From Escherichia coli (GTDB lineage Bacteria; Pseudomonadota; Gammaproteobacteria; Enterobacterales; Enterobacteriaceae), in the NCBI RefSeq assembly GCF_009931435.1, contig NZ_CP043415.1: a stretch of 64,000 nt of DNA; one strand, written 5' to 3'. Position 1 is the first letter of the stretch, and the number at the start of each line of letters is the position of its first letter. The notes under the pieces are model-generated. The model did no database searches, had not been told where the DNA came from, and was given only the letters and a program-made list of their open reading frames with translations. Shown piece after piece: positions 27,924-64,000 of this stretch. A program made the position numbers and the translations under genes.

Positions 27924-31844
<3,921 letters not shown>

Positions 31845-44658: not shown

Positions 44659-45074
44659 GTACCGTTTATCACCGTCCGGCTGACCCTTCAGGCAATGACA
44701 GTTACGTGCGACCGTTGTTTGCCGATCGTTGCCAGGCCGGTTTTCCTTCGCCTGCCACTGATTATGCTGAGCAGGAACTGGATCTGAACAGCTATTGCAT
44801 CAGCAGACCTGCAGCCACCTTCTTTCTGCGCGCCAGCGGTGAATCGATGAACCAGGCTGGCGTGCAGAATGGTGATCTGCTGGTAGTGGACAGGGCCGAA
44901 AAACCACAACACGGGGACATCGTTATCGCTGAGATCGACGGGGAGTTCACCGTCAAACGACTGCTGTTGCGCCCACGCCCGGCACTGGAGCCGGTTTCAG
45001 ACAGCCCGGAGTTCCGCACACTGTATCCGGAAAACATCTGTATTTTTGGTGTTGTCACTCACGTTGTTCATTGA
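44655..45074 (+). CDS. impA: ImpA (UmuD-like), C-terminus altered by a deletion
   Basis: 139 aa with LexA-like cleavage-site region (RASGESM) and catalytic domain; ends …GVVTHVVH, shorter than expected for UmuD-family proteins. Confidence 0.85.
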   Translation: MSTVYHRPADPSGNDSYVRPLFADRCQAGFPSPATDYAEQELDLNSYCISRPAATFFLRASGESMNQAGVQNGDLLVVDRAEKPQHGDIVIAEIDGEFTVKRLLLRPRPALEPVSDSPEFRTLYPENICIFGVVTHVVH

Positions 45075-46031
45075 TTTGCGGGGGGTGAACCGTTGCATCT
45101 CTCCGGAGGTTTTTGGTCATCAGCTCAGGGAACAAGTAAAGAGCTGGACAGGACTCGCCATGGGGGTGGGCATTGCACCTACAAAAACGCTGGCCAAAAG
45201 TGCACAGTGGGCAACAAAGCAATGGCCACAGTTTTCCGGTGTGGTCGCGCTGACGGCAGAAAACCGTAATCGGACCTTCAAGTTACTGGGGCAGCAGCCT
45301 GTTGGTGAAGTCTGGGGAGTAGGACGCAGACTGACGGAAAAGCTGAATGCGCAGGGTATTAACACAGCGCAGCAGCTGGCGCAGGCTAACACGGCATTCA
45401 TCCGGAAAAACTTCAGCGTCATTCTTGAGCATACAGTACGCGAACTCAACGGCGAGTCCTGCATATCTCCGGAAGAAGCCCCACCGGCAAAACAGCAGAT
45501 TGTCTGTAGCCGCAGTTTTGGTGAACGAATCACAGACAAAGATGCCATGCACCAGGCTGTTGTTCAGTATGCAGAGCGGGCCGCAGAGAAACTACGTGGG
45601 GAGCGTCAGTATTGCCGGCAGGTGGCGACATTTATACGAACGTCACCCTTTGCAGTGAAAGCCCCTGTTACAGCAATTCCGCTGTGGAAAAGCTTCCATT
45701 GCCTACACAGGACAGCCGGGACATTATTGCCGCAGCATGCAGAGCGTTAAACCATGTCTGGCGTGAAGGGTACCGCTATATGAAGGCAGGAGTCATGCTG
45801 GCTGATTTCACACCATCGGGTATAGCGCAGCCGGGATTATTTGATGAAATCCAGCCCCATAAAAACAGCGAAAAGTTAATGAAAACACTCGATGAACTGA
45901 ACCAGTCGGGAAAAGGGAAAGTGTGGTTTGCGGGGCGAGGAACCGCCCCTGAATGGCAAATGAAACGGGAAATGTTGAGTCAGTGTTATACAACTAAATG
46001 GCGAGATATTCCCCTGGCCAGGCTGGGTTAG
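45070..46031 (+). pseudogene. impB: impB (UmuC-like Y-family polymerase), N-terminally deleted and frameshifted
   Basis: Translation aligns to UmuC only from about residue 100 (…GVGIAPTKTLAK…); reading frame shifts near 45650-45665, with the C-terminal part continuing in another frame (45612-46031). Confidence 0.8.
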
Positions 46032-46032
46032 T

Positions 46033-46449
46033 TCAGTCATCTCCGAACATATTTTCAGCGTTTCTTCTGGTCTGGTCTTCACCGTCATTTCTCGACAGAC
46101 TCTGCTCTGTAAGAGGAGTACTGCAATCCACAGACGTATGGAGACCAGATTGTTTTTCCAGTAATTCAAGCAATTTCTTTTCAACCGAAAAAGCACCTGG
46201 TATTACGCTGGAAATCACCTTATTAATATCATCCAGAGTCGTATTTTCTGTCAGTAACTCCGATATCAGCAAAGGAAGACGTTTATCTATAGCTGCAAAC
46301 GCCGCACCAGTAACTAACATCGCGCGCATGAAACGTCCCCGCTCCTTCAGTTTTTCATTTGCAATGAGCTCATCTGCTATCTTATCTCCTGTCCGTTCAT
46401 CCGGGAAAAGTTCAAATGAGCAGCGTCTGGATTTATTTTCATCACTCAT
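46033..46449 (-). CDS. parR: ParR/StbB-like partition adaptor protein
   Basis: Small protein downstream of parM with similarity to R1 ParR (…ELLTENTTLDDINKVI…). Confidence 0.75.
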   Translation of the reverse strand: MSDENKSRRCSFELFPDERTGDKIADELIANEKLKERGRFMRAMLVTGAAFAAIDKRLPLLISELLTENTTLDDINKVISSVIPGAFSVEKKLLELLEKQSGLHTSVDCSTPLTEQSLSRNDGEDQTRRNAENMFGDD

Positions 46450-47835: not shown

Positions 47836-48144
47836 TTATTGACCTATTGCGCCATCACGTTCAAGCTTCTCTCTTATAGCCTCAATAATATATGAGCTAA
47901 AATCCAGAGATGTTTTACTGGTCGCTTTAAGTTCCGCATGAGCTTCAAAATACGACAGCGGTATGGCCTTAAGATTCTTAGCCTTCGTCCTGGCGGCCAC
48001 GGGACGACCTGAAACTTCCTCTGTACCTTCATTTGGCTGAGACGGGACTGTTGCTGTTACGGCAGAAGAAGAAGTTTGTAATCTGGCAGAATCCACCAGG
48101 TTTTTCAGTTTTTCAGCCTGTGCACTAAATTTCGCTTTGCTCAT
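47836..48144 (-). CDS. ParG-like ribbon-helix-helix partition protein (putative)
   Basis: 102-aa ORF directly downstream of the ParA-like gene; C-terminal region looks RHH-like. Confidence 0.5.
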   Translation of the reverse strand: MSKAKFSAQAEKLKNLVDSARLQTSSSAVTATVPSQPNEGTEEVSGRPVAARTKAKNLKAIPLSYFEAHAELKATSKTSLDFSSYIIEAIREKLERDGAIGQ

Positions 48145-48875: not shown

Positions 48876-49056
48876 AGTGTATCTCCAGAATCCACATGTA
48901 ATACCCATAAAGCCCCCCCAAAGACACCTTTCGGATATCCAAGAGGTACTCAATAGATGTTTTTTTTACTCTATACCGGCCCGGCATGTCAACAGAATAT
49001 GAAATACCGATAATATATCCATGAGATATCCGAAAGGGATTTAAAAAAGTCAGAGC

Positions 49057-49419
49057 TTAAGGAATTCTTTTGAGCATAGACACCGCATCGGACTCAAGCA
49101 TCGAAAACTGCACCCGGTGCCGTGCAGCCACATCCAGTGCAAATACCTTCGTGTAGACCTCCGTTGAACTGATGGACTTATGCCCCATCAGGCTCTGCAG
49201 GACCTTCAGCGGTATACCGACATACAGCATGTGCATCGCATAGGAATGGCGGAACGTATGTGGCGTGACCGGGACAGATAACGTCACACCGTCAGCGGTA
49301 ACCGCTTCCCCAATCCAGGCCCTGACCGTTCTGTCCGTCACTTCCCAGATCCGCGCTTTCTCTCTCCTGCCTGTCCGTTTATTACGCCGTTCCATGGGGA
49401 TTTTCAGTGTGGCCACCAT
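49057..49419 (-). pseudogene. Tyrosine recombinase/integrase remnant (C-terminal catalytic region only)
   Basis: 120-aa ORF containing HTFRHSYAMHMLYVGIPLKVLQSLMGHKSISSTEVYTKV (H-x-x-R … Y catalytic motif); no N-terminal domain in frame. Confidence 0.7.
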
Positions 49420-49820
49420 CGTCTGCAGCTGGCTGACGTACCAAGAGTCGGAGAGCGGAACCAGCCGGTGAGTCTACTGCCCGGCTGGCGTTCTTCCTGC
49501 CGTCCTGGCTGCTTTTTCTGTCCGCTGCTTCAGAGTGACCAGCAGGTATTTTGGCAGTTCATCATGAACCATCGACATATCCCTCAGTGAAGAGGAGGCT
49601 TATGGATGGTGTCGCTGCGGTAATTTCAGAACGTGCCATCATCCGTCCTGTATAGCGCATCTTCCTGCAGAAGGGTTTCAGCCGCCGCGGTAATAAATGC
49701 TCGTACCGTGCAGATAGCATTCTGCACACTCCCCGAACTGATATACACGGGTTCAAGAGATTCGGTAACTCCATCACGGTGTACCAGTGCGTTTCGGACC
49801 TTGATTACCCTCTCAAGTTC

Positions 49821-50405
49821 CTACAAAGGCCACTCATGCGGTGTTGCCAGCATCGTTGAAAAATACCGATCTATCACTTTGTGGCTCTGAAACGTTTTCT
49901 TCGCCACAAGAGACTGAGCTCGCCAGGTATAAACCTTCTCAGGAGTGGCTGTATCCGGTTCCTGCTCGACCCATTTGGAAGCACGTAATTTTCTTCTGTC
50001 TTCCTTATTAGCAATCAGCGAATCAGCTACCTGCAGAAATCGCTGCAAATGTGGAGGATGATTAAGAAGTGCCCTTGCGCTGTACATCAGAAAACTGTCC
50101 AACACACTCACACAATGAACGTAAGCCATTCGCTCCACAATTCCCGGTTGGTTGAACTGCATCAGGTTCTCTAACTCAAACAATTCATCTTTTGCATCCT
50201 GCAGACGGTCAGGAATACTGGCAAGCGAAGCCTCAAAATATTGCTGCTCAGCCGCCTCTTCCATCCAGTCCTGAAACCAGCTGTATTCCTGTGCTGCCGC
50301 ATCCCATTCAGGAGTTCCTTCCTCAGCATCCGTGTAATTTTCCGCAATCCATTCATCAGTGCGTTCTTCCTGAATTTCAAACAGCAGTTCTTTCATTTTT
50401 CCCAT
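49821..50405 (-). CDS. Hypothetical acidic protein, 194 aa
   Basis: ORF only; no recognisable motif; possibly truncated. Confidence 0.35.
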   Translation of the reverse strand: MGKMKELLFEIQEERTDEWIAENYTDAEEGTPEWDAAAQEYSWFQDWMEEAAEQQYFEASLASIPDRLQDAKDELFELENLMQFNQPGIVERMAYVHCVSVLDSFLMYSARALLNHPPHLQRFLQVADSLIANKEDRRKLRASKWVEQEPDTATPEKVYTWRAQSLVAKKTFQSHKVIDRYFSTMLATPHEWPL

Positions 50406-50593
50406 TTATACCTCACTGAATCTCCTGAAATCCCGCCTGGCATTTGTCTGTGCTCATTCCAGGATTAGATTTATTCAGTATCCATGCTTGGCGTAATGTG
50501 ATGCGATGTTTTTATCCAGAGGTATACCGCACGAAAGCATGAACCGCCCCGGAAATCCTGGAGACTAAACTCCCTGAGAAAGAGGTAAACAGG

Positions 50594-50920
50594 ATGACTA
50601 AAAATACTCGTTTTTCCCCCGAAGTCCGTCAACGCGCAGTTCGTATGGTTCTGGAAAGTCAGGGCGAATATGACTCACAGTGGGCGGCAATTTGTTCCAT
50701 TGCCCCAAAGATTGGCTGTACGCCGGAGACTCTGCGTGTCTGGGTTCGCCAGCATGAGCGGGATACCGGGGGCGGTGATGGTGGGCTCACCAGCGCTGAA
50801 CGTCAGCGTCTGAAAGAGCTGGAACGTGAAAATCGTGAACTGCGCTGCAGTAACGATATCCTTCGCCAGGCTTCCGCTTATTTTGCGAAGGCGGAGTTCG
50901 ACCGCCTCTGGAAAAAATGA
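50594..50920 (+). CDS. IS3-family transposase OrfA
   Basis: 108 aa, HTH and leucine zipper, [41 protein letters not shown]…. Confidence 0.9.
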
Positions 50921-51807
50921 TGCCACTGCTGGATAAGCTGCGTGAGCAGTACGGGGTCAGACCGGTATGCAGCGAACTGCATATTGCCCCGTCAACGTAT
51001 TACCATTGTCAGCAACAGCGACATCATCCGGATAAACGCAGTGCCCGTGCGCAGCACGATGACTGGCTGAAGAAAGAGATACAGCGCGTATACGATGAAA
51101 ATCACCAGGTATACGGTGTGCGTAAAGTCTGGCGTCAGTTGTTACGGGAAGGTATCAGAGTGGCCAGATGCACTGTGGCACGTCTCATGGCAGTTATGGG
51201 ACTTGCCGGTGTTCTCCGGGGTAAAAAGGTCCGCACTACCGTCAGCCGGAAAGCCGTTGCCGCATGCGACCGCGTAAACCGTCAGTTCGTGGCAGAACGT
51301 CCAGACCAGTTGTGGGTGGCTGATTTTACCTGGGTAAGCACATGGCAGGGCTTCGTTTATGTGGCGTTCATCATTGATGTGTTCGCCGGATACATCGTGG
51401 GATGGCAGGTCTCATCATCCATGGAAACAACATTCGTGCTGGATGCACTGGAGCAGGCGTTGTGGGCCCGTCGGCCGTCCGGCACAATCCATCACAGTGA
51501 TAAAGGTTCTCAGTATGTATCGCTGGCCTACACGCAGCGGCTTAAGGAAGCCGGATTACTGGCATCAACAGGGAGTACTGGCGACTCGTATGACAACGCG
51601 ATGGCGGAGAGCATCAATGGTCTTTACAAAGCGGAGGTAATACACCGTAAGAGCTGGAAAAACCGGACAGAAGTGGAACTGGCCACACTAACGTGGGTGG
51701 ACTGGTATAACAATCGACGATTGCTGGGAAGGCTGGGCCATACTCCTCCGGCAGAAGCAGAAAAAGCTTATTATGCTTCCATCGGAAACAATGATCTGGC
51801 AGCCTGA
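50917..51807 (+). CDS. IS3-family transposase OrfB (DDE integrase domain)
   Basis: 296 aa, overlaps the orfA 3' end. Confidence 0.9.
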
Positions 51808-51978
51808 GTTCACAGATAAAACACTCTCCAGGAAACCCGGGGCGGTTCATTCAGTGGTGAACAGTCCATTCCGGAGACGGAATATCTTGTTAAGGCTGTA
51901 TATTATACTGGCTGTAAACAACATGGCCACCAAGGACCATGTTGTTTACAGCATACCCTTGTTACAAAAGAATCCCCG

Positions 51979-54177
51979 TCAGAACAGCACTGAGTAGTTC
52001 AGACCAAAGGTTCGGCCCCGGCCTTTGTAGTCGTACAGTGAAGCAGGGCCGTAACCCGGGCTGTAGTACAGAGGTGCACGCTGTCCCCAGACAGTGGTAT
52101 AGTCACGGTCGAAGAGGTTCTCAACGCTGAAGCTGAGTGTTCCCACCGGAAGCAGCCAACTACTGATAAAATCGACGGTAGTGTAACCATTAATATCGTT
52201 ACCCTCTGCATCGCTTACGTCGAAAGAAGTGGTGCTCTGCACACGCAGACTCCACGGTTCCGGCGCCCAGCTAATGTAAGCTGTCGCTTTCGATGGACTT
52301 GATTCCTTCACGTCATATTTTTGCCATTGACCGTTCACTTTCGACTCGGTTTTCAGCACATTGAAGTTCACACCGGTACTCCAGTCAGTATCCGGGATCA
52401 GGTAGTCCACCGCACCTTCCACGCCGTAAATACGGCGCCTGTCGTCCTTCACACTGATGGTCAGATCTTTATTCCTTTCCACGCTCTTATTGGAAAGCGA
52501 GTAATATGCTGCGATTTGAGTCCGCAGGTTGTCACCGGTAAAGCGCCAGCCCAGTTCATAAGAATCGACTTTCACGCCTTCCAGCTTACTGTCGCTGACG
52601 TTCACGCTCTTTGTCAGGGGAAGATGGCCGTTCACTGCTGCACCATAGATGCCGCGACCATAATATTTCCCCGGATCCGGCAATGCCACCCCCTGGGAAA
52701 AATTGAACCATGCCTGCTGACGTTCGGTGATGTGCATCAGCAGACCAGCATTGAACAGAAAGTTATCGTAATCTACCGAACCACCAGGAATGGCGTCGGC
52801 AGATATCGCCTTCCCGGCAGCAATCTTCTGTTGCTGCATGTAGTCGATAAAATCATCTACCCTGTTCTCAGTATACTGATAGCGTACGCCACCGCTGACG
52901 GTAAAAATATCATTAATGTCATAGCTGGATTGCAGGAAGGCCGCCAGATTGGTGATGTCATATGACGGATAGCGCCCGGTGGTGTAAATCTTATGGTTGT
53001 TCAGCCCTCCGGAAGCACTTGCCTGAGCCAGATCGAAGAACATCTGGTTGGAGGTAAAGCGCTCATGCTCAGCATCCAGCCCCCAGGTGATTTGCCAGCC
53101 GTCCATCAGTTGGCTGTTCAGAGTCAGTTTCATGCCGTACTGGTCGGTATCCTGCTGTGACGAGGAGAAAGCCGTCGCCTGTTTATTCGCATTTACCGTC
53201 GGGAACGGGTAGAACCGCAACGACTCATCGCGGTAGTAAACCTGACCGACCAGTTCCTGTCTCAGGAAATCACTGTCAGAGTACTGCAGGCTGATCAAAT
53301 GCCGCTCAGTGCCGGGAATGCGGTCAGAATTCAGCCCCTTACTGACGTATGGTGTGCTGCTCCCGCTGATGGCGGAAAAGCCTTTCCCGAGATTAAGCCC
53401 GTAATTGTCGTCCCCCTGACTTTTATAGTACTGCGTTATCAGTTGAAGCTGCCGGGATTCATCGATGTTCAGCGTACCGGTTCCCATGATGTCCAGCCGA
53501 TTGGAGTGCTGCAGGCCGGTCTGGGTGTTATCAAGCAGGGTAGCATCGCCGTTACCGTCAAACCAGCCGCCAAATTTCTGATATGCCACGGAAAGACGTC
53601 CGGAGATATGGTCATTTCCGCCGGAGACAGCACCGGCAATGCGCTCATCGTGATCTTTACTGCTGTTAAAGCCACTTTTTGTGCCAGCCTCAAACTCCAT
53701 CATGGTTTCCGGCTGGCCTTTTTTGGTCACGATGTTTATCAACCCTCCGGTACTCCCGCCACCGTACAGGGCCGTCGCGCCGGAGATCACTTCAATATGG
53801 TCGATATTAAAAGGATCGACAGAGTCCAGTTGTCGGCTGTCGGAACGTGAAGAGTTGAGGCGCACACCGTCAATCAGGACAACCAGCGGGCGGCCACGCA
53901 TGTTCATACCGTAGTTGGTTCGGCTCTGGCTGCTGACATCAAGGCCGGGGATTAACTGAGCCAGTGCGTCTTTCAGCTCTTTACCGCCCTGAATCTGCTG
54001 CTCCAGTTCGGCATTTTCGATAACCCAGGTGGTTTGCGCCATCTCCGCTACAGTTCGATTGCTGCGGCTGGCAGACACTATGATCTCATTATCATCGTTT
54101 TGCTGGGCGACAGCTGGTGACAACACGACAAGAAGCAGCGGACCAAGAGCCCGGGGCATATACTTTTTGCGCATCAT
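51979..54177 (-). CDS. iutA: IutA, TonB-dependent ferric aerobactin receptor
   Basis: Start set at MMRKKYMPRALGP…, giving 732 aa; C-terminal TonB-box-family terminus …GLNYSVLF. Confidence 0.93.
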   Translation of the reverse strand: MMRKKYMPRALGPLLLVVLSPAVAQQNDDNEIIVSASRSNRTVAEMAQTTWVIENAELEQQIQGGKELKDALAQLIPGLDVSSQSRTNYGMNMRGRPLVVLIDGVRLNSSRSDSRQLDSVDPFNIDHIEVISGATALYGGGSTGGLINIVTKKGQPETMMEFEAGTKSGFNSSKDHDERIAGAVSGGNDHISGRLSVAYQKFGGWFDGNGDATLLDNTQTGLQHSNRLDIMGTGTLNIDESRQLQLITQYYKSQGDDNYGLNLGKGFSAISGSSTPYVSKGLNSDRIPGTERHLISLQYSDSDFLRQELVGQVYYRDESLRFYPFPTVNANKQATAFSSSQQDTDQYGMKLTLNSQLMDGWQITWGLDAEHERFTSNQMFFDLAQASASGGLNNHKIYTTGRYPSYDITNLAAFLQSSYDINDIFTVSGGVRYQYTENRVDDFIDYMQQQKIAAGKAISADAIPGGSVDYDNFLFNAGLLMHITERQQAWFNFSQGVALPDPGKYYGRGIYGAAVNGHLPLTKSVNVSDSKLEGVKVDSYELGWRFTGDNLRTQIAAYYSLSNKSVERNKDLTISVKDDRRRIYGVEGAVDYLIPDTDWSTGVNFNVLKTESKVNGQWQKYDVKESSPSKATAYISWAPEPWSLRVQSTTSFDVSDAEGNDINGYTTVDFISSWLLPVGTLSFSVENLFDRDYTTVWGQRAPLYYSPGYGPASLYDYKGRGRTFGLNYSVLF

Positions 54178-54179
54178 CG

Positions 54180-55517
54180 TTATTCCTGAATATTTGTTGT
54201 ATAGTGAGTTAAAGAAGCAGCCTCCGGCTGCGGTTTTTTCCGGCTGCCGCTGCGCCACTGAATCAGTGCGGGCGGCATACTGAGATCGAATAAATCACGC
54301 CCCAGTACGCGATTAAGAATACGTGCAGATCTCCAGGCCATCAGGCTGAGCTGGGGTTCGGCGATGCCATGAGTTTGCATGCTGGCGTTGACCGCAAAGA
54401 TGTTATTTTCTTTCGGGCCACTCCATTCCAGAGTGAAGTCATCACGCACTTTAAAGGTGTTCTTATCGTGCATGGTGATCAAGGGCATCAGTGAGGGAAG
54501 TATTTGTGGCAATGCAGAACGGTAACCTGTGGCGAAAATCACCACATCACTTTCCAGGCTCTCTCTGCCCCGATCCAGATGATGTTCCATCAATAACTTC
54601 CAGCCCGGACCACTACTTTCCAGAGTTGTTACCGAGCGGCTGGGTAGCAGACGGATATTTCTTGGTTTTCTCAGAACTTCAAAACGGTGGTACAACTCAC
54701 GATAAATGGTCAGTAAAGAATCGGCAGTGATGCCATCCGATGTCATTTTCTGCTCATCCAGTAACTGATGGCGAATATCTTCCTTCAGTCCGGAGAAGCC
54801 TGAAATATATTCAGGTGTAAAATACTCATCAGCAAAAGCAGCCTCATCCAGTGCGTTAAAATTATTACGCCGTGAGACCCAGTTTATTTCCGCCGCTTCT
54901 CCCCATTCCCCGCGTAATGCATTAAGGAACAGGTCTGCACCACTCTGTCCTCCACCAACCACAGTTATCCGTTTTCCACTCAGGTCCGGCCGACGAAGAT
55001 TCATTTCACTGGCATGGAAACAGGATTGTGTCACATGCTTCACACAGGGTGGTAAATAAGGTTGTTTTCCTGTACCAAGGCAGATATTGCGGGCAAAATA
55101 TTCTCCCCGACTGGTCTGAACCAGAAACAATCGACTTTTTTTGTCGAAATCAATATTTTCAACGGTATGACTGAAATACAGGTTATTCATATCTTCAGCA
55201 GCCCAGCGGAGATAGTCAGAAAACTCTTCACGGGATACTGTACGTAGTCTGCTTGTAAGGAAGCGATAGAACTTTTTGTGCTTCACCAGATAGTTAACAA
55301 AGCTGTAGGGATTTGTAGGTGCAACTGCACTGACCAGATCTTTCAGAAAGACAGTCTGCATATGACAATCCGGTACCAGCATACCCGGATGCCAGGAAAA
55401 ATGAGGATGTTCGTCAAAGAAGAGACAGTTCAGTTCTTCGATCTGATGTGACAATGCAGCAATACTGAGATTAAATGGCCCTGTCCCGACACCAATAAAA
55501 TCGACACTTTTTTTCAT
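54180..55517 (-). CDS. iucD: IucD, L-lysine N6-monooxygenase
   Basis: FAD/NADPH-binding motifs GVGTGPFNLS and GGGQSG; position in the iuc operon. Confidence 0.9.
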   Translation of the reverse strand: MKKSVDFIGVGTGPFNLSIAALSHQIEELNCLFFDEHPHFSWHPGMLVPDCHMQTVFLKDLVSAVAPTNPYSFVNYLVKHKKFYRFLTSRLRTVSREEFSDYLRWAAEDMNNLYFSHTVENIDFDKKSRLFLVQTSRGEYFARNICLGTGKQPYLPPCVKHVTQSCFHASEMNLRRPDLSGKRITVVGGGQSGADLFLNALRGEWGEAAEINWVSRRNNFNALDEAAFADEYFTPEYISGFSGLKEDIRHQLLDEQKMTSDGITADSLLTIYRELYHRFEVLRKPRNIRLLPSRSVTTLESSGPGWKLLMEHHLDRGRESLESDVVIFATGYRSALPQILPSLMPLITMHDKNTFKVRDDFTLEWSGPKENNIFAVNASMQTHGIAEPQLSLMAWRSARILNRVLGRDLFDLSMPPALIQWRSGSRKKPQPEAASLTHYTTNIQE

Positions 55518-57256
55518 GATTCATATTCCTGAGTTACCAGCCACAGCGGATTTTGCAGATTCTCAAGGTAATTCGGCAGCATGCGACTGCCGCCATCCTG
55601 GTCCGGCCAGGTCAGTTTTACCGGGTTCAGCACCACGCGAATGATTTGTGGCCTGAAGAGTGAGAAAAGCGCAAAACGCTCTGACATTTGTGGATGTTTG
55701 TTCATGTAATCACTCAACACTGCTGCCAGCAGTTGATAAAATCGCCTTTCAGGTACGCCAAGACGAACCATCAGTGGCGAAATAAAACGCAGTACTGTCA
55801 CGAAGTGACCCGTCTGCAAATCATGGATTAAGTAGTCCGCACTCAGACGGGATGTGACATCACGCACCTCCTGAGGCAAAGAGTCCATTTCGGGAAACGC
55901 TTCTTTCACCAACCGCATATCGCCCTGGAAGTCTTTCAGCAGAACACGCTGTGGTACCCCCTCTTTCATGGCGAGCGTTATATTTTGTCCGTGTGCAATA
56001 AGCGCGACACCGTAGCGGCAAAGCAGGTGATACAGCGGAACCACAACCACCCGGAACAATTGCGTAAGCCAGGTTTCAGCGTCCAGTCCGGAGCGGTCGA
56101 TATATGCGCCTGCCAGCGGCTGATTGTTTTCGTCGCACTCCATCAGTGTTGCCATCAGAACCGGACTTTCATCCGGTTTCAGCCAGCGGCACGGATTCTC
56201 CCGCCAGATAACACCAAGCATTTCCTGGTAGCGATAGGGAGCCCGGGCAAGCGCGGCATAGCCTTCATGGGACACATAGCCTGCAGCCGGTTCACCAAGG
56301 ATCACTGCGCCGCTTTGCACCAGGGTGGCGTCGGTCGCAAAAACCTGTTGCAGCCAGCGTGAAGCCAGTGGTCCGGCAGCGATATATCTGCCAGGGATCC
56401 CCCGGTAGCATGAGGTGTTGTAGATGGTCAGCGGCAGCTTGATATCCAGCCCTCCCCGGCGGCTGGCGTTGGTCAGGGTACGCAGCGACTGCTGGGCGAG
56501 CCACTGGTCGCCAAACTCGCCGAGAGACACCATCCTGCCTTCGGCAAAATCAGCGATGAAGTCGGTGGCGATTTTTTGCTGCCACTGCCACGGATGTACC
56601 GGCAGCGGCAGCCAGTTGTGATCCAGCCCGTTTTCCTGCCAGACCTGACTGAAGCGTGTAAACTCCTGCGGATCCATTGCGGCAGTCAACAACTGCTGAA
56701 TATCCAGATCGTTGTCGCAGCGCCAGATCATATGTTCACGTTTTACCGCCAGCCAGTGCAGTCTGAAGGTGTTGGCATACTCTGGCGCATATCGTTCCAG
56801 CGCCTCTTTGCCCCAGCCACGGCGACCTTTATTAAAAACGAATTTAGGATGACCGCTCAGCAGGCATTGCAGACGATCGGCATCAAGATTAATCAGGTCA
56901 CTGGCACTCAGTCCGCGACGGGCCTTCAGCAGTTGCAGGTCGCCCAGTAGCGTGGCATACAAATCCTGCATATGCTCTGCAACAGTGGCATCACTCATTG
57001 ACAGCACCGGCTTTAGCTGCATCAGCAGCGTCTGCGCCAGTACTGGTTCGTCCGTGCAGCGCAACGTTTGGGCATCAATCCACAGCCAGCCCCAGATACC
57101 ACGTTCAGCGATGAAGCGCCATTGTGCTCCCGGCAGGTTAATGCAGTAGTGGTCATCGCCCTGAGATTCCGCGTGGAAAACCTGCTCATACTCCATCTCA
57201 GACAACATTTTTGCCACCAGCCGACGGTTAACAAAATCCCAGTCCTTGTGATTCAT
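55514..57256 (-). CDS. iucC: IucC, aerobactin synthetase (NIS synthetase)
   Basis: 580 aa, IucA/IucC family; operon position. Confidence 0.9.
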   Translation of the reverse strand: MNHKDWDFVNRRLVAKMLSEMEYEQVFHAESQGDDHYCINLPGAQWRFIAERGIWGWLWIDAQTLRCTDEPVLAQTLLMQLKPVLSMSDATVAEHMQDLYATLLGDLQLLKARRGLSASDLINLDADRLQCLLSGHPKFVFNKGRRGWGKEALERYAPEYANTFRLHWLAVKREHMIWRCDNDLDIQQLLTAAMDPQEFTRFSQVWQENGLDHNWLPLPVHPWQWQQKIATDFIADFAEGRMVSLGEFGDQWLAQQSLRTLTNASRRGGLDIKLPLTIYNTSCYRGIPGRYIAAGPLASRWLQQVFATDATLVQSGAVILGEPAAGYVSHEGYAALARAPYRYQEMLGVIWRENPCRWLKPDESPVLMATLMECDENNQPLAGAYIDRSGLDAETWLTQLFRVVVVPLYHLLCRYGVALIAHGQNITLAMKEGVPQRVLLKDFQGDMRLVKEAFPEMDSLPQEVRDVTSRLSADYLIHDLQTGHFVTVLRFISPLMVRLGVPERRFYQLLAAVLSDYMNKHPQMSERFALFSLFRPQIIRVVLNPVKLTWPDQDGGSRMLPNYLENLQNPLWLVTQEYES

Positions 57257-58203
57257 TACAGACCGACCTCCGTGAAGAAGTGATGACGATCCGCCATCAC
57301 CATGCGCGAGCGCTTATGTGGGAAGTCGAACTCTTTAATTGTCCGGTATCCCGCAGGCTCAAGATGGCGGAACAGGCGCTGGTTATCGGTGCGTGGCTCC
57401 AGTACTGTGCGCTGCGTACGGGGCTCATCCAGCAGCAGGTAATGTGTCAGCCCGCGCAGCCAGCTTTGCACATAGTGGGCCCCGCGCCATTGCTGTTCAC
57501 CAACCAGCAGATGCAGGCCACGGTCAAAGGGCTGCCACGAATAGTGACGACCAATGCGGTCTTCCGCCGCCCAGTAGATTTCAAAATAGCTGAATGGCCG
57601 ATCGTCGAAGCACCCAATCAGCGGAAATGCATGTTTACCGGTGAGCTGGCGCTCCAGATAGGCGGTCTGTACCTCCAGTGAGCCACTTTGCTCCCAGAAA
57701 TACTCAACGCGCGGATCATTCATCCAGCGGGTGAAACGTTCTGCATCAGAAACGGGATCGGCAATGCGGAAACTCAGCATCCTGCGAATACGTGGATCGT
57801 AACGGCGGTAAACCTCACCCTGCGGACGGGGTGGGCGCTGCGGGAAATAAATCTCACGCTCTGCATCAAAAACCATTTCACCGGAGGCCCGGTTTGCCGG
57901 TGAACTCAACCATAACGGTAACTGCCAGAAGGCGGTACGATGGATAATGTCGCTTTTTACCTGCCCAAAAAGCGTCAGCGCCTGTGGCTCCTCACACCAT
58001 TCGGCCCAGGGGAGAGCCACTGCTGACAGTTGTGGTGCGGCGATAAATATCTGATCCAGCGCATCGCACAGCCACCCTGTCGGCAGCTCCCCGGGACAGT
58101 GCAACACCGCGCTATTGTCCAGTCCCCAGCCAAGATTCAGGGGCTTGTCGAGTTTTTCACAGCGCAGTCCATATCTGCTGTGAATAATGTTTGCCTCAGA
58201 CAT
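57256..58203 (-). CDS. iucB: IucB, N6-hydroxylysine acetyltransferase
   Basis: 315 aa; operon position. Confidence 0.9.
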   Translation of the reverse strand: MSEANIIHSRYGLRCEKLDKPLNLGWGLDNSAVLHCPGELPTGWLCDALDQIFIAAPQLSAVALPWAEWCEEPQALTLFGQVKSDIIHRTAFWQLPLWLSSPANRASGEMVFDAEREIYFPQRPPRPQGEVYRRYDPRIRRMLSFRIADPVSDAERFTRWMNDPRVEYFWEQSGSLEVQTAYLERQLTGKHAFPLIGCFDDRPFSYFEIYWAAEDRIGRHYSWQPFDRGLHLLVGEQQWRGAHYVQSWLRGLTHYLLLDEPRTQRTVLEPRTDNQRLFRHLEPAGYRTIKEFDFPHKRSRMVMADRHHFFTEVGL

Positions 58204-59928
58204 TCAGACCTCCTGAGCCTGCAGCGGGTTAGCGAAATCGAAATAGATCACCGAAGGGTCAACAATGGTGTTCTCGTTATGATCGTTCAGATAACAGAAA
58301 AAGTTACCTTTTACGTTCCAGTACGGACTTTCCAGCACGTAGTTGAGACAGGTTTTATGAGTCACCTGATCACGCACTTCAGCCAGCGATGCTCGTACAC
58401 GAGCCATCAGATTCGATTCGCTGTCCAGCCCGGCAGCCCCCAGCGCAGCGGTCACAGCAAAAGTGGAGTTAACCAGCAGGTAATAAGGGAAATAGCGCAG
58501 CAACTGCTCATGGGTGAAAATATTTTCCGCCTGCGCCTCGCCAATAGAATCGAGCCAGTCTGTCGCGTGAGGCATAAAAGCGCTGCCCTGACAGTCACGG
58601 TAAATAAATCCGACCGGCAGATCCCCAAGCATCTGGACAAGAATATTTTGCTGATGCGCCAGCAGCACCAGGCCGTAATCCGCTTCAGCCGTAAACAGCG
58701 GCTTTAGCACTTGCTGACAGTATGCATCGACCCATGCATGGGCGGCCTGTTGCACAGTGATACCGAGGCGATCGCTCAGGCGTTTTACCGCCGAAACCAG
58801 CAGCGAATCACCGCCATCAGGTGCGGCCTGAGTCAGGGAGACCAGTACGTTGGTCTGGCTTTTCGGCTGATCCACCAGCAGATTTTCACGCAGGGCAAAC
58901 AGACTTTCCTGCATGATGTTGCCGTTAAGATCGAGCAGCCCGGCCCAGCCATCCTCCTGCATTACCCGGAAAGTCGGGAAGCGGACCTGTAGCATCTGCC
59001 AGCCGTCGGTTTGAGCCAGGCGTGCCAGGCGCATCCCACGCTTCACTTCTTTCACGGACAGAGTACGGATGGAGTTGGTCAGCCGTACGCTCAGGGAGAA
59101 CTTGATCATATCGCGGCTGGTGGCACAGTAGAGGGAACGGGAAGAGGTGGTCGGCAGCCACGACGTGCCGGCCTCACCTAAGTCTTTAATCAGCCCTTTA
59201 GCAACAAGTGCCTGGCACCACCCCTGCTGCAAAAGATATTCCCCCTGCCACGGGTGCAACGGGAACAGCCATTGGTTGTCACTTAATTCGTTGAGTAACT
59301 GAGGCGCATTCTCTGCGGCAAATCGCGTCAGCCGCTGTTGAAGGTTGAGATGCAAACTTTCACCGGCGATTTGCGTTTTATCCACCGAAAACCACCGCAG
59401 TGGGAAGTGGGGTGCCATATCAGGCAGGTAGCGTTCAGCCTCCCGCCGGTTAAACGGTTCATGAGACTTAGGCGCAGGGTGGAAAGCGTGTCCTGTCAGC
59501 AGCGCCTGCTCAGCTTCGCCAAAATTCAACGCTTTTTCACGCAGGGCGGTCCAGTCATGACGGGCATCAATTGCCTGTTGCGTATGGGCGTGGCTTTCCA
59601 GCACGCGCTGGTGGAAAGTTTCGCAGAGGGGAACGGGCAGAAACAGTTGATGCCGTAGCTTATCAATAATAAGCCGGGAGAGAGTGGTAAAGTCGACAGG
59701 ATAACTGCCTGATGCCGTGACCAGACGTGCAGGAAATGCAAAGCGGTGATGCTGGGTTGGGGAGAAATAAGCCACTCTGAAATGGAGCGATTTCTGCTCA
59801 TCCAGCGGGATGATCAATTCGTCTGGCGGGTATTCTGTCAGTTTCCAGTCTGTGGTTTCACGAATCAGTGCATTCAGGAAGCACTGCGCAGCCACATCTG
59901 TGGCTGGTTTTTCAGAGGGCAGGGTCAT
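58204..59928 (-). CDS. iucA: IucA, NIS synthetase
   Basis: Start set at MTLPSEKPATDVAAQ (574 aa); the ORF-track N-terminal extension is the Fur box read as codons. Confidence 0.88.
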   Translation of the reverse strand: MTLPSEKPATDVAAQCFLNALIRETTDWKLTEYPPDELIIPLDEQKSLHFRVAYFSPTQHHRFAFPARLVTASGSYPVDFTTLSRLIIDKLRHQLFLPVPLCETFHQRVLESHAHTQQAIDARHDWTALREKALNFGEAEQALLTGHAFHPAPKSHEPFNRREAERYLPDMAPHFPLRWFSVDKTQIAGESLHLNLQQRLTRFAAENAPQLLNELSDNQWLFPLHPWQGEYLLQQGWCQALVAKGLIKDLGEAGTSWLPTTSSRSLYCATSRDMIKFSLSVRLTNSIRTLSVKEVKRGMRLARLAQTDGWQMLQVRFPTFRVMQEDGWAGLLDLNGNIMQESLFALRENLLVDQPKSQTNVLVSLTQAAPDGGDSLLVSAVKRLSDRLGITVQQAAHAWVDAYCQQVLKPLFTAEADYGLVLLAHQQNILVQMLGDLPVGFIYRDCQGSAFMPHATDWLDSIGEAQAENIFTHEQLLRYFPYYLLVNSTFAVTAALGAAGLDSESNLMARVRASLAEVRDQVTHKTCLNYVLESPYWNVKGNFFCYLNDHNENTIVDPSVIYFDFANPLQAQEV

Positions 59929-59970
59929 AGTCAAACAGCTCCCACACAGTAAAATAATAACAATTATGTC

Positions 59971-59989
59971 AATAATGATTCTCATTATC
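59971..59989 (-). promoter_or_regulatory. Fur box (iron box) in the aerobactin promoter
   Basis: AATAATGATTCTCATTATC, a close match to the Fur consensus GATAATGATAATCATTATC, just upstream of iucA. Confidence 0.8.
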
Positions 59990-60063
59990 AATAAGAAATG
60001 TTATTGTCAGATGAATTAATTTTACAAATAAACACAATTAATACATGGAGTTGAAACATTAAA

Positions 60064-61257
60064 ATGTCACCTGGGATCGAAGATACGCCCCAAAAACCAC
60101 TGTCCTGCTGGCCACTTGCGTTCAGTGCCGGGCTTCTCGGTATCGGGCAGAACGGTCTGCTGGTTGTGCTCCCTGTTCTGGTCATACAGACAAATCTGAG
60201 TCTGTCTGTATGGGCTGCCCTGCTGATGCTTGGCTCAATGCTGTTTCTGCCATCGTCCCCGTGGTGGGGAAAGCAAATTTCCCGTACTGGCAGTAAACCT
60301 GTGGTGTTGTGGGCTCTGGGAGGATATGGCATAAGCTTTACCCTGCTAGGGCTGGGAAGCGTGCTGATGGCTACCAGCGCCATAACAACAGCGGTGGGAC
60401 TGGGAATATTAATCATCGCCCGGATCGCCTACGGGCTGACCGTGTCGGCAATGGTGCCAGCCTGTCAGGTCTGGGCATTGCAGAGAGCAGGAGAAGGGAA
60501 TCGCATGGCCGCTCTGGCAACCATCAGCTCCGGCCTGAGTTGCGGCAGGCTATTCGGGCCGCTGTGCGCGGCAGCAATGCTGGCCATTCATCCTCTGGCG
60601 CCACTGGGGCTGCTGATGGCAGCCCCAGTGCTGGCGCTGCTGATGCTGCTGCGGTTGCCCGGCACACCACCACAGCCCACACCGGAGCGCAAGAGCGTCA
60701 GTCTGAAGCGGGATTGTCTGCCTTATCTGCTTTGCGCAATATTACTGGCTGCGGCGGTGAGCATGATGCAGCTTGGACTTTCGCCTGCCCTTACTCGCCA
60801 GTTCGCCACGGATACCACCGCCATTAGCCAACAGGTGGCCTGGCTGTTGGGTCTGTCCGCAGTAGCTGCGCTTATCGCGCAGTTCGGGGTACTCCGTCCG
60901 CAGCGCCTGACTCCGGTGGCCCTGCTCCTGAGTGCCGGAGTGTTGATGAGTGGTGGTCTGGCTATCATGCTCTCCGAACAGCTATGGTTGTTTTACCCGG
61001 GCTGTGCAGTGCTGTCATTTGGAGCTGCTCTGGCAACACCCGCTTATCAACTTCTACTGAATGATAAGCTGGCTGATGGCGCAGGCGCGGGCTGGCTCGC
61101 TACCAGTCACACACTTGGCTATGGACTGTGCGCTTTGCTGGTGCCGCTGGTATCGAAAACAGGTGTCGCAATCGCGCTGATTATGGCGGCATTATTTGCA
61201 ACTATATTATTTACCATTGTGTCTGTATTTATCTGGCATTACCGTGCTATCAAATAA
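60064..61257 (+). CDS. shiF: ShiF-like MFS transporter divergent from the iuc operon
   Basis: 397 aa, about 12 predicted TM segments; divergently transcribed from the aerobactin promoter region. Confidence 0.75.
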   Translation: MSPGIEDTPQKPLSCWPLAFSAGLLGIGQNGLLVVLPVLVIQTNLSLSVWAALLMLGSMLFLPSSPWWGKQISRTGSKPVVLWALGGYGISFTLLGLGSVLMATSAITTAVGLGILIIARIAYGLTVSAMVPACQVWALQRAGEGNRMAALATISSGLSCGRLFGPLCAAAMLAIHPLAPLGLLMAAPVLALLMLLRLPGTPPQPTPERKSVSLKRDCLPYLLCAILLAAAVSMMQLGLSPALTRQFATDTTAISQQVAWLLGLSAVAALIAQFGVLRPQRLTPVALLLSAGVLMSGGLAIMLSEQLWLFYPGCAVLSFGAALATPAYQLLLNDKLADGAGAGWLATSHTLGYGLCALLVPLVSKTGVAIALIMAALFATILFTIVSVFIWHYRAIK

Positions 61258-61642
61258 AGATATGATCATCACCTTACCGGAGTAAATCAGAGGATATGAG
61301 AGAGAACCTGCGTCTGATGAAAGCATGTCAGGCAGTAACACTGGCAAAAATGCACCGCATGGTACAGGGTATGTTCGGTATAAAACCGGCCGGTGTCACT
61401 TAAGTTGCATTGAAGTCATGCTGGTTGTGAGTGCAACATCACATGGCTCTGTCCGGATGCCTGCAGACAATGAGAACAGTGCGATTACTCATTGGGAATG
61501 AGATGAACGCATCCCCAACATTAGATCTGGGGCACCGTGATAAATAAAGGGGAAAATCAGAGAGGTGTCGAGCCTCGCAGATTTCCGGCATCATAGTGCC
61601 CAATACGGGATGCATAAAACTCTCTCAGAGTGGCGTTGATAC

Positions 61643-62682
61643 CTGAAAGAGCTGGAGCGAGAAAATCGTGAACTGCGCCGCAGTAACGATATCCTTCGCC
61701 AGGCTTCCGCTTATTTTGCGAAGGCGGAGTTCGACCGCCTCTGGAAAAAATGATGCCACTGCTGGATAAGCTGCGTGAGCAGTACGGGGTCAGACCGGTA
61801 TGCAGCGAACTGCATATTGCCCCGTCAACGTATTACCATTGTCAGCAACAGCGACATCATCCGGATAAACGCAGTGCCCGTGCGCAGCACGATGACTGGC
61901 TGAAGAAAGAGATACAGCGCGTATACGATGAAAATCACCAGGTATACGGTGTGCGTAAAGTCTGGCGTCAGTTGTTACGGGAAGGTATCAGAGTGGCCAG
62001 ATGCACTGTGGCACGTCTCATGGCAGTTATGGGACTTGCCGGTGTTCTCCGGGGTAAAAAGGTCCGCACTACCGTCAGCCGGAAAGCCGTTGCCGCATGC
62101 GACCGCGTAAACCGTCAGTTCGTGGCAGAACGTCCAGACCAGTTGTGGGTGGCTGATTTTACCTGGGTAAGCACATGGCAGGGCTTCGTTTATGTGGCGT
62201 TCATCATTGATGTGTTCGCCGGATACATCGTGGGATGGCAGGTCTCATCATCCATGGAAACAACATTCGTGCTGGATGCACTGGAGCAGGCGTTGTGGGC
62301 CCGTCGGCCGTCCGGCACAATCCATCACAGTGATAAAGGTTCTCAGTATGTATCGCTGGCCTACACGCAGCGGCTTAAGGAAGCCGGATTACTGGCATCA
62401 ACAGGAAGTACAGGCGACTCGTATGACAACGCGATGGCGGAGAGCATCAATGGTCTTTACAAAGCGGAGGTAATACACCGTAAGAGCTGGAAAAACCGTG
62501 CAGAAGTGGAACTGGCCACACTAACGTGGGTGGACTGGTATAACAATCGACGATTGCTGGAAAGGCTGGGCCATACTCCTCCGGCAGAAGCAGAAAAAGC
62601 TTATTATGCTTCCATCGGAAATAATGATCTGGCAGCCTGAGTTCACAGATAAAATACTCTCCAGGAAACCCGGGGCGGTTCA
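61643..62682 (+). mobile_element. IS629/IS1203-like element, 5'-truncated copy (about IS positions 271-1310)
   Basis: Near-identical to the complete copy from the orfA 3' part through the right inverted repeat; left inverted repeat and orfA 5' end absent. Confidence 0.85.
61750..62640 (+). CDS. IS3-family transposase OrfB (second copy)
   Basis: 296 aa, differs from copy 1 at about 3 residues. Confidence 0.85.
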
Positions 62683-64000
62683 GCATGACCGGATTTTTAT
62701 CAGTGGGTAGACAGTTGGGAGTGAAGCCTGAACACACCCATTGTTGTCTGTGCACATCAAGCGTGGCCAGAATACGACCCGACGCGCTGTAAATTGCAAA
62801 CTGATGTGTATATACCGAACCGGTATATCCTGGCGGTACAGGGTTTATTTTTAACCATAGGAATTTATGACCACAACGTGTCAGATAATTCCAGACATGA
62901 ACTATTGATGCGCGCATTTAGTTCCTTAGTAAAAAGTCACCAATGGTAATTATGATGTGCAGCATAATCAGCTGCACATACCTCTACATCTGTCACTCTA
63001 ATGACTTTCTCCTACCGCAATCATCACTCCACTGATAATAATCAGACATATAGACACATTATTAAATTAACGAATGGCCGTTCCGGTGAGATCCGATTTT
63101 CTGTCTTATAACAACTTTCCGGAAGTGTAACACGGTTGCGTCTTGGCTCTTGCACCCTTTTCTGTCGTTGTGAACGGGCCCACAGGGAATGAAGGAGACA
63201 CAATATATAGTGTCATTAGCATCTAAATTAAGCACTATATGTTGTGCTGACAGAAGGTGGCGTTGTTGTGGGGGAAAAGGAAGATCCGTAACTATCAGGA
63301 CTCTGACGATTAGTCTTAAGACTGTCGGTAAATTAAGTGATATCAGTTGTCAGGATATTCATGGAGTCAGTCTGTATGCACCTTTGCCATTGAAACAAAC
63401 ATATGAAGTGTACTTCGGATATGACCGTATGTTCAGGAAGTACGGCAGATTGAGTCGAAAATTACCTGTAAAGACAGACATCAGAAAAACAGTGCTCGCC
63501 GCAGACCGGTGACCGGGCGAAGCCCGCGAACCGGCGAGGAAGCGCAATGGATCTGTAGTTACAGTGAGCAGGTACGCCCTGAAGCCTTCATAATCGGTAG
63601 TGTATGCTGTTTTTCTGGAATGATTTATCCACATATCCGGAGGCCCGATCCAGTAAACAGATCCATGAATGATCAACAAAGGATCCATTAAAGATCCCCA
63701 TATCTCTGCAAACCTTGTCACTCATGGGCCGGGACTACGATCACATAAGCTGTGGCATGTTACTGATAAACTGTAACATGCTAATGATAAGCTGTATTCA
63801 GTAATCCATATACTGAAGTAAGTTAATGACATAAACTATGGTCAGTATGCCAGACTCAGTTGTTAAATACAGGCTGCAGGTTTTTCTTCAGTCAGTTAGC
63901 GGAGTTCTGACACACGATTTTCTGTTTATTCTTTTACTGTCCACAGGCTGGAGGCTTTCTGGAAAACGAAAATTCAGACATCAAAAAACTGTTCGGCGAG

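Follow-up and report, generated by a model that had tools for sequence, protein, structure and literature searches.

Positions 49057-50405 of a 64,000-nucleotide stretch of Escherichia coli DNA (contig NZ_CP043415.1; hereafter the window) were found to hold two dead genes of a plasmid-maintenance operon, resD for a tyrosine recombinase and a gene for a protein with a predicted HEPN fold, and their state is one of ordinary plasmid gene decay. The evidence is best explained, with a probability of about 0.85, by a defunct rfsF-HEPN-resD stability operon that decayed step by step and by a later, clean insertion of an aerobactin unit into the intergenic DNA upstream of it. Comparisons were made with the plasmids of PLSDB and with the F plasmid, and the lesions were mapped against the intact homologues in the related plasmids pE7476_162 and p205880-NR2. 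The segment is correctly annotated as a resD pseudogene and a HEPN-family pseudogene, and not as an integrase fragment plus a hypothetical protein.

The two open reading frames (ORFs) first described in this segment, one of 120 amino acids (aa; 49057-49419, minus strand) and one of 194 aa (49821-50405, minus strand), were both found exactly at those positions, and the complete insertion sequence (IS) that the preliminary description had placed about 130 bp away began at 50540, 134 bp past the start of the 194-aa ORF. The 120-aa ORF was the 3' part, read from an internal Met codon, of a resD pseudogene (49057-49578, minus strand) of the F type, whose intact product is a tyrosine recombinase for plasmid multimer resolution. 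Alignment to intact 260-aa genes and six-frame translation followed the resD frame, unbroken by any frameshift, between its original start (ATG, 49576-49578) and stop (49057-49059) codons. The N-terminus of the recombinase had been taken as missing, with only the C-terminal catalytic region surviving. This was too strong a statement, as the original ATG and parts of the N-terminal half were located in the same frame, up to 49578.

The 120-aa ORF matched the Pfam family Phage_integrase (PF00589) far beyond chance (E 4.7e-14; profile positions 106-168 of 172), and an intact 260-aa homologue matched the same profile over positions 2-168 (E 3.1e-18). The ResD protein of F, encoded directly after ccdAB, was 95% identical to the intact homologue, and its residues 128-267 were 90% identical to the last 138 codons of the window resD; the recombinase was identified as ResD because of these two identities. 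No intact recombinase family of about 120 aa was found among the relatives examined, in which all ResD-like homologues were 246-271 aa long.

Lesions were distributed along the resD frame, all of them read on the minus strand and established by alignment to intact genes, with translation in addition for the larger deletion junction and the stop codon. Directly after the start codon, 96 bp (32 codons) were lost in frame, with the 9-mer ATGTCGATG (49570-49578) at the junction. This 9-mer was the start-codon region in resD of the pE7476 type and was internal in resD of the F or pNMBU-W10C18_02 type, and the window sequence was pE7476-like upstream of it and F- or pNMBU-W10C18_02-like downstream of it. 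The loss may represent a deletion between 9-bp repeats or a misaligned (chimeric) join of two resD alleles. A 156-bp in-frame deletion (junction 49536/49537) took out 52 codons (APEVSALL...NTGARINEAL...PFVQLA), including the one for the box-I catalytic arginine. Codon 35 of the shortened frame was a nonsense codon (CAG>TAG, 49474-49476), and a 9-bp in-frame deletion (junction 49294/49295) removed three Ala codons.

As a result of these lesions, 172 codons were left of resD and were divided by the TAG into pieces of 34 and 138 codons, in place of an uninterrupted ORF of about 260-268 aa. The 120-aa ORF kept the H-x-x-R (HTFRHS), G-H and Tyr (EVYTKV) motifs of the tyrosine recombinases. Arg-I (NTGARINEAL) was deleted, which left the catalytic set incomplete in the window, and because Arg-I is missing the 120-aa ORF is predicted to be unable to act as a recombinase. 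The window's resD allele (>95% identity) was not found in undeleted form in PLSDB; the close PLSDB matches (17 of 17) aligned in one piece, and therefore carry the resD deletions. A promoter and terminator scan of 48900-50600 gave nothing over the shuffled background.

The 194-aa ORF had been described as an orphan with no recognisable function, and was instead recognised as the 5' three-quarters of a conserved gene that precedes resD, and its product as a truncated member of a conserved HEPN-fold family present in the resD operon of many plasmids. The pseudogene extended over 49626-50405 (minus strand), with a full form of 259 aa from this ATG; the intact gene was annotated elsewhere as 256 aa, from the next Met, and family lengths were about 256-269 aa. 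Translation and plasmid comparison located a nonsense codon (CAG>TAG, 49821-49823, minus strand) 9 codons before the R-x4-H motif, and the 64 codons after it were still open and in frame to the original TGA (49626-49628). The RNALVH codons (49779-49796, minus strand), with the invariant R-x4-H of the putative HEPN active site, now lie past the stop codon, and the 194-aa product therefore lacks the motif. In pRM11911 and pRHB40-C03_2 the HEPN gene was intact and the TAG was missing.

The E. coli protein is predicted to have the HEPN helical-bundle fold on the basis of its relatives, its predicted structure and its motif. A search with the protein returned 85 clusters, all from Enterobacterales where a taxon was named and nearly all of unnamed proteins, with one UniRef-labelled RiboL-PSP-HEPN domain protein and one cluster with a precomputed PF18735 hit among them. 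Among 35 aligned homologues, the most distant at 33% identity, R201, L204, H206 and R207 were among the invariant residues and form the R-x4-H motif, and 6 of the 35 homologues independently matched the Pfam family HEPN_RiboL-PSP (PF18735; best E 1.1e-7). Direct Pfam and NCBIfam scans with the 194-aa ORF and with the full 256 aa of the E. coli protein found no family, PADLOC gave one insignificant RTasHEPN match only (E 0.36), and a Foldseek search against the PDB returned nothing. A HEPN family in the resD operon, without a Pfam or NCBIfam name for its E. coli members, is an only modestly new item; ResD/rfsF, aerobactin units between IS3-family copies and pseudogenes in plasmids are established knowledge.

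The aerobactin island was a discrete 12.1-kb unit (50540-62682). Its left end was a complete 1310-bp IS3-family element (50540-51849, plus strand) with terminal inverted repeats TGAACCGCCCCGG...CCGGGGCGGTTCA, orfA (108 aa), orfB (296 aa) and an ALIL frameshift pseudoknot (117.8 bits in Rfam); Rfam returned nothing besides IS3 ALIL pseudoknots. The element was placed at the level of the IS3 family, IS629-like being its name in the preliminary description. The cargo (51850-61642) comprised iutA, iucD, iucC, iucB and iucA with an MFS transporter gene, and was followed by a second IS copy in the same orientation (61643-62682, plus strand), 5'-truncated (IS positions 271-1310) and 99.0% identical to copy 1. 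As the right copy is truncated at its 5' end, only copy 1 can supply transposase. Since the IS copies differ at ten positions, two arrival routes are possible: the unit may have transposed as a composite transposon, or a circular segment of IS plus cargo may have recombined with an IS that was already resident.

The sequence and the comparison with pRM11911 agreed on a target-site duplication, GCA, on the left (50537-50539) and on the right (62683-62685) of the island, the outer flanks reading ...AAAGCA up to the first IS and GCATGACC... after the second. A 3-bp target-site duplication is what is expected of IS3-family transposition. In pRM11911 the empty site contained a single GCA, AAAGCATGACCGG (also as AAAGCATGACC), with the intergenic DNA upstream of the HEPN gene (50406-50539) joined directly to 62686 onward. 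The same plasmid was continuous with the window from the parA side through both pseudogenes to the first IS base, and its continuation past the empty site was 96.4% identical to window positions 62682-64000. The features of an IS3-family element and of a composite transposon were all present, namely two IS copies, cargo, an outer GCA duplication and a known empty site. The 12.1-kb unit was inserted cleanly between the HEPN gene and an rfsF-like region, with no flanking DNA deleted.

Megablast returned 14 E. coli plasmids in PLSDB with 99.7-100% identity, most of them from cattle. The same gene pair was intact, at about 91.5-92% identity, in about 205 more plasmids, IncI-gamma/K1 plasmids among them, in which a hypothetical protein of 256-259 aa directly precedes a 260-aa 'site-specific integrase'. 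Partial matches to the query, for most plasmids in the recombinase gene only, came from more than 4500 plasmids. Over window positions 48900-50600 (1.7 kb compared), the window was 100% identical to pNADC1036IncF, a conjugative IncF plasmid with cnf2, cdtABC-III, F17 fimbriae and aerobactin.

The lesions were nested among the plasmids. The resD stop codon was common to pRM11911, pRHB40-C03_2, pNADC1036IncF and pSTEC2018_607-c, and the 9-bp resD deletion was confined to the plasmids that carry the island. The first plasmid, pRM11911, had the resD deletions and stop codon and an intact HEPN gene, and had neither the island nor the 9-bp deletion; pRHB40-C03_2 had the resD lesions, the island and the 9-bp deletion, with the HEPN gene intact; and the window, pNADC1036IncF and pSTEC2018_607-c had the resD lesions, the island, the 9-bp deletion and the HEPN stop codon. 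Because the sets are nested in this way, the decay of resD preceded the island and the loss of the HEPN gene followed it, the order being resD deletions and stop codon, then island insertion and 9-bp deletion, then HEPN stop codon.

This order contradicts the proposal that the system was disrupted during assembly of the virulence region: the lesions in both genes are internal, and those of resD were already present in the island-free pRM11911. No rearrangement boundary caused the damage, both genes having been ended by in-frame deletions or CAG>TAG nonsense codons, and the idea of a 'REARRANGEMENT boundary' failed, since the island is a clean intergenic insertion with a target-site duplication and touches neither pseudogene. 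Of the scar of an integrative element or resolvase system proposed for the segment, the second half was sustained, in the form of a plasmid resolvase relic, and the integrative element found no indication.

Beyond the island, positions 63014-63292 were homologous to the DNA upstream of ccdA in F (nucleotides about 45,922-46,165; rfsF/oriV1), with the conserved blocks AGATCCGA (63088-63096), CTTTCCGGAAGTGTA and GACACAAtATATAGTGTCAT; pE7476_162 and p205880-NR2 also had homologues of this F region, in front of the operon. The rfsF site lies at the start of RepFIA, and ResD resolves plasmid multimers at it (PMC4398462); ResD/rfsF has been named as the dimer resolution system of mini-F (preprint 10.1101/2024.03.26.585537). 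The site has been described as imperfect repeats of 10-14 bp around a spacer of 6-8 bp (PMC5587640), and as a boundary or switch point between alternative gene sets (PMC8004404, PMC9412624). The literature gave descriptions and not the published core sequence, and the core was taken from those descriptions and from the best inverted repeat in a scan of the F region, AGATCCGAAA-N8-TTACGGATCT (nucleotides 45,922-45,949). The position of this repeat coincides with the placement of rfsF in PMC4398462 and it fits the repeat and spacer description in PMC5587640. Its counterpart in p205880-NR2 was GCAGATCCGGAA-N8-AACCGGATCTGC, and a weaker counterpart was present in pE7476_162.

The inverted-repeat scan and alignment located one arm of this core repeat, the resD-proximal one, in the window (GGAAGATCCGTAAC, 63279-63292). 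The distal arm of the core, itself an inferred and not a published sequence, was not found in the window or in pRM11911, which left the window with no complete cognate rfsF. The similarity of the window and pRM11911 to F-type and I-type plasmids ended inside the spacer, a sign that the crossover site may be a mosaic junction, and the single-arm site is in line with the switch-point reports for rfsF (PMC8004404, PMC9412624). The rfsF-like site of the window is probably as dead as its enzyme. Further along, positions 63491-63551 were about 79% identical to F nucleotides 48,028-48,088, which lie between resD and repE in F, and were placed just upstream of the RepFIB replicon that starts at the window end.

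The slot between rfsF and resD differed in content among plasmids. It held ccdAB in F, a 104-aa gene and the HEPN gene in pE7476_162 and in IncI-gamma/K1 plasmids, a 137-aa gene in pNMBU-W10C18_02 and pRM8426, and a 116-aa and a 229-aa gene in pMRY15-131_1; the resolvase operon thus seems to have a slot for exchangeable cargo. Outside E. coli, HEPN homologues with 38-65% identity were found upstream of a ResD-like integrase in plasmids of Kosakonia, Enterobacter, Pantoea and Phytobacter, with parA/parM close by in three of these four, and the Kosakonia integrase was 77% identical to F ResD. In an integrative and conjugative element of Pectobacterium the HEPN gene did not stand beside an integrase and had SIR2 and DUF4238 genes near it. 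The 104-aa gene of the E. coli and IncI plasmids was homologous to a 115-aa gene directly upstream of the HEPN gene in Enterobacter (E 3e-12) and weakly similar to an upstream gene in Pectobacterium; the upstream small genes of Kosakonia and Phytobacter were different. No remnant of the 104-aa gene was found in the window lineage by tblastn or blastn.

Taken as a mechanism, the intact relatives have the order rfsF site, one or two cargo genes, resD. ResD, a small Cre-like tyrosine recombinase, resolves plasmid multimers at rfsF, so that each daughter cell gets a plasmid copy. The cargo of the present lineage is the HEPN-fold protein, preceded by the 104-aa gene in intact relatives. Every component appears defective in the window (resD, the HEPN gene and the rfsF-like site), and the 104-aa gene is absent. 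Recombinase activity would then be gone, and another system would be expected to resolve the multimers. A plausible candidate is the intact RepFIB-linked integrase: in pNADC1036IncF a 246-aa tyrosine recombinase (WP_001066934), 47% identical to F ResD, was intact beside RepFIB (28803-29543), and may serve as the alternative multimer resolvase of the plasmid. The HEPN protein may formerly have been an RNase-type toxin or a defence protein. A further proposal, put forward tentatively and with the balance against it, is that the HEPN protein and its small upstream partner formed a plasmid addiction or anti-phage module in the rfsF-resD slot, co-expressed with the resolvase, and that the protein was silenced as an unpartnered toxin after the partner was lost.

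Stepwise decay was weighed against a scar left when rearrangements or IS activity that assembled the aerobactin region truncated the recombinase and the adjacent ORF. The IS3-family element does begin only 134 bp from where the 194-aa ORF starts, and the intact-type plasmids cease to match just upstream of the HEPN start codon, where the 104-aa gene is replaced by unrelated DNA; yet both genes are whole from start to stop save for their internal lesions, pRM11911 shares the resD lesions while its site is uninterrupted, the island has its 3-bp duplication and removed no flanking DNA, and pRHB40-C03_2 carries the island without the HEPN stop codon. The empty-site plasmid pRM11911 effectively refutes this account, which is hardly tenable. 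A scar of an integrative element was considered separately and ruled out, there being no att-like repeats or integrative context, with resD situated in a parM/parA maintenance backbone.

It is also very unlikely that the fragments (the 120- or 138-aa recombinase and the 194-aa HEPN product) are still functional in DNA binding or regulation, or in a dominant-negative or antitoxin-like role. The F ResD (D protein) is said, from work of Lane and co-workers in 1986, to be a transcriptional repressor as well; the large resD deletions are all in frame, and 14 plasmids retain the truncated alleles with 99.7-100% identity. However, deletions that keep the frame would arise by chance in about 1 of 9 cases, the high identity reflects recent common descent and not selection, the stop codon splits resD into 34 and 138 codons with the Arg-I box gone, no homologue of that length was found among the relatives examined, and the promoter scan was at background level. 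The chance that the TAG codons are read through by a glutamine-inserting amber suppressor, with the original residues restored and expression made conditional, is next to negligible. Both stop codons are CAG>TAG and both frames continue past them, but C>T at CAG is among the commonest one-step routes to a stop codon, the two stops arose at different times, resD would still be short of 84 codons including that of the catalytic arginine, and an amber suppressor tRNA is not expected in wild E. coli. Silencing of the HEPN gene by selection, as a toxin whose 104-aa partner had been lost and whose inactivation was favoured, is rather unlikely. The homologous small gene directly upstream of the HEPN gene in E. 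coli/IncI and Enterobacter plasmids, and weakly in Pectobacterium, argues for it, as do the position of the HEPN module in the slot of ccdAB in F, the absence of any remnant of that gene from the window lineage and a stop codon just ahead of the putative catalytic motif. Nevertheless, the HEPN gene is intact in pRM11911 and pRHB40-C03_2 although both lack the 104-aa gene, and the HEPN protein is therefore tolerated alone or not expressed; besides, Kosakonia and Phytobacter have other small genes at the upstream position, and the toxin role is putative.

Several observations weigh against the stepwise decay of a resD stability operon, or against parts of it. The HEPN assignment leans on relatives, predicted structure and motif, the direct Pfam, NCBIfam and Foldseek PDB searches having been null. 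The 96-bp loss could be a chimeric join and not a deletion, with the same outcome for resD, and DNA binding by a truncated product that starts at the internal ATG (49419) is conceivable. Because two rfsF sites are spoken of in one paper, the call of a half-site could be incomplete. Simple decay does not explain why substitutions cluster towards the 3' end of resD: the 11 substitutions and the 9-bp indel that separate the window from pRM11911 all fell within 49097-49316, the 3' third of the gene, and the next 1.2 kb or so after 49316 contained a single difference, the HEPN stop codon. The cluster may be a gene-conversion patch.

The backbone order at the locus was umuD, umuC (pseudogene), parR, parM, a 102-aa gene, parA, resD' and HEPN'. 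At 45046-46031, umuC was split between ORFs of 234 and 139 aa, which overlap and use different frames, and had no N-terminus; related plasmids encode a 423-aa Y-family polymerase, and no coding sequence was annotated there in pNADC1036IncF. The umuC of the window looks like a pseudogene too. The 102-aa ORF between parM and parA (47836-48144, minus strand) carries the RefSeq name 'molecular chaperone GroEL' (WP_000030206), which is almost certainly a mis-annotation; its sole match was a weak one to DUF3950, and the ORF may encode a DNA-binding partner of the adjacent ParA.

For the cattle-associated virulence plasmid family, the results mean that the aerobactin operon came in at a defined site, as a discrete unit bounded by IS3-family copies, and the succession of resD lesions, island and HEPN stop codon is a usable marker for lineage tracing. 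The locus also illustrates that the rfsF-resD module acts as a mosaic junction among F, I and K plasmids, and that a plasmid can persist after losing it.

Compared with the HEPN superfamily, the RiboL-PSP-HEPN family (PF18735) and the HEPN/MNT toxins, the E. coli protein scored under the Pfam threshold, had about 80 additional N-terminal residues, acidic and helical, and lacked an MNT partner. The window copy was truncated ahead of the R-x4-H motif, and any ribonuclease function of the protein is putative. The island resembled IS3-family (IS629/IS1203-like) composite transposons in its two direct IS copies around iucABCD-iutA with the outer inverted repeats intact, in the 3-bp target duplication and in the empty site of pRM11911; unlike those transposons, its right copy lacked the first 270 bp and the copies differed at 10 positions. 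Cre/loxP, FLP/FRT and XerCD/cer-dif belong to the same superfamily as ResD (PF00589) and share its logic, an inverted-repeat core with a 6-8-bp spacer at which dimers are converted to monomers. Their similarity to ResD was only distant (best PDB matches XerC-like and XerD, E 1e-13 to 1e-11, in the C-terminal motif), and ResD, with 260-268 aa, is shorter than these enzymes.

The rfsF-resD modules of IncI1 (R64, ColIb-P9), IncK and IncR plasmids shared the neighbourhood of umuDC, parM/parR, parA and resD with the window; they are intact, whereas the window lineage had a boundary inside the rfsF core and a decayed enzyme. With ResD/rfsF of F, where RepFIA has the order rfsF - oriV1 - ccdAB - resD, the window had in common an orthologous recombinase, upstream sequence blocks and the arrangement of an rfsF-like region ahead of a short operon with resD as its last gene. 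It differed from F in that resD was a pseudogene (two deletions, a stop codon and Arg-I lost) and the site had one arm, in that HEPN-fold cargo took the place of ccdAB, and in that a 12.1-kb aerobactin unit split the site region from the genes.

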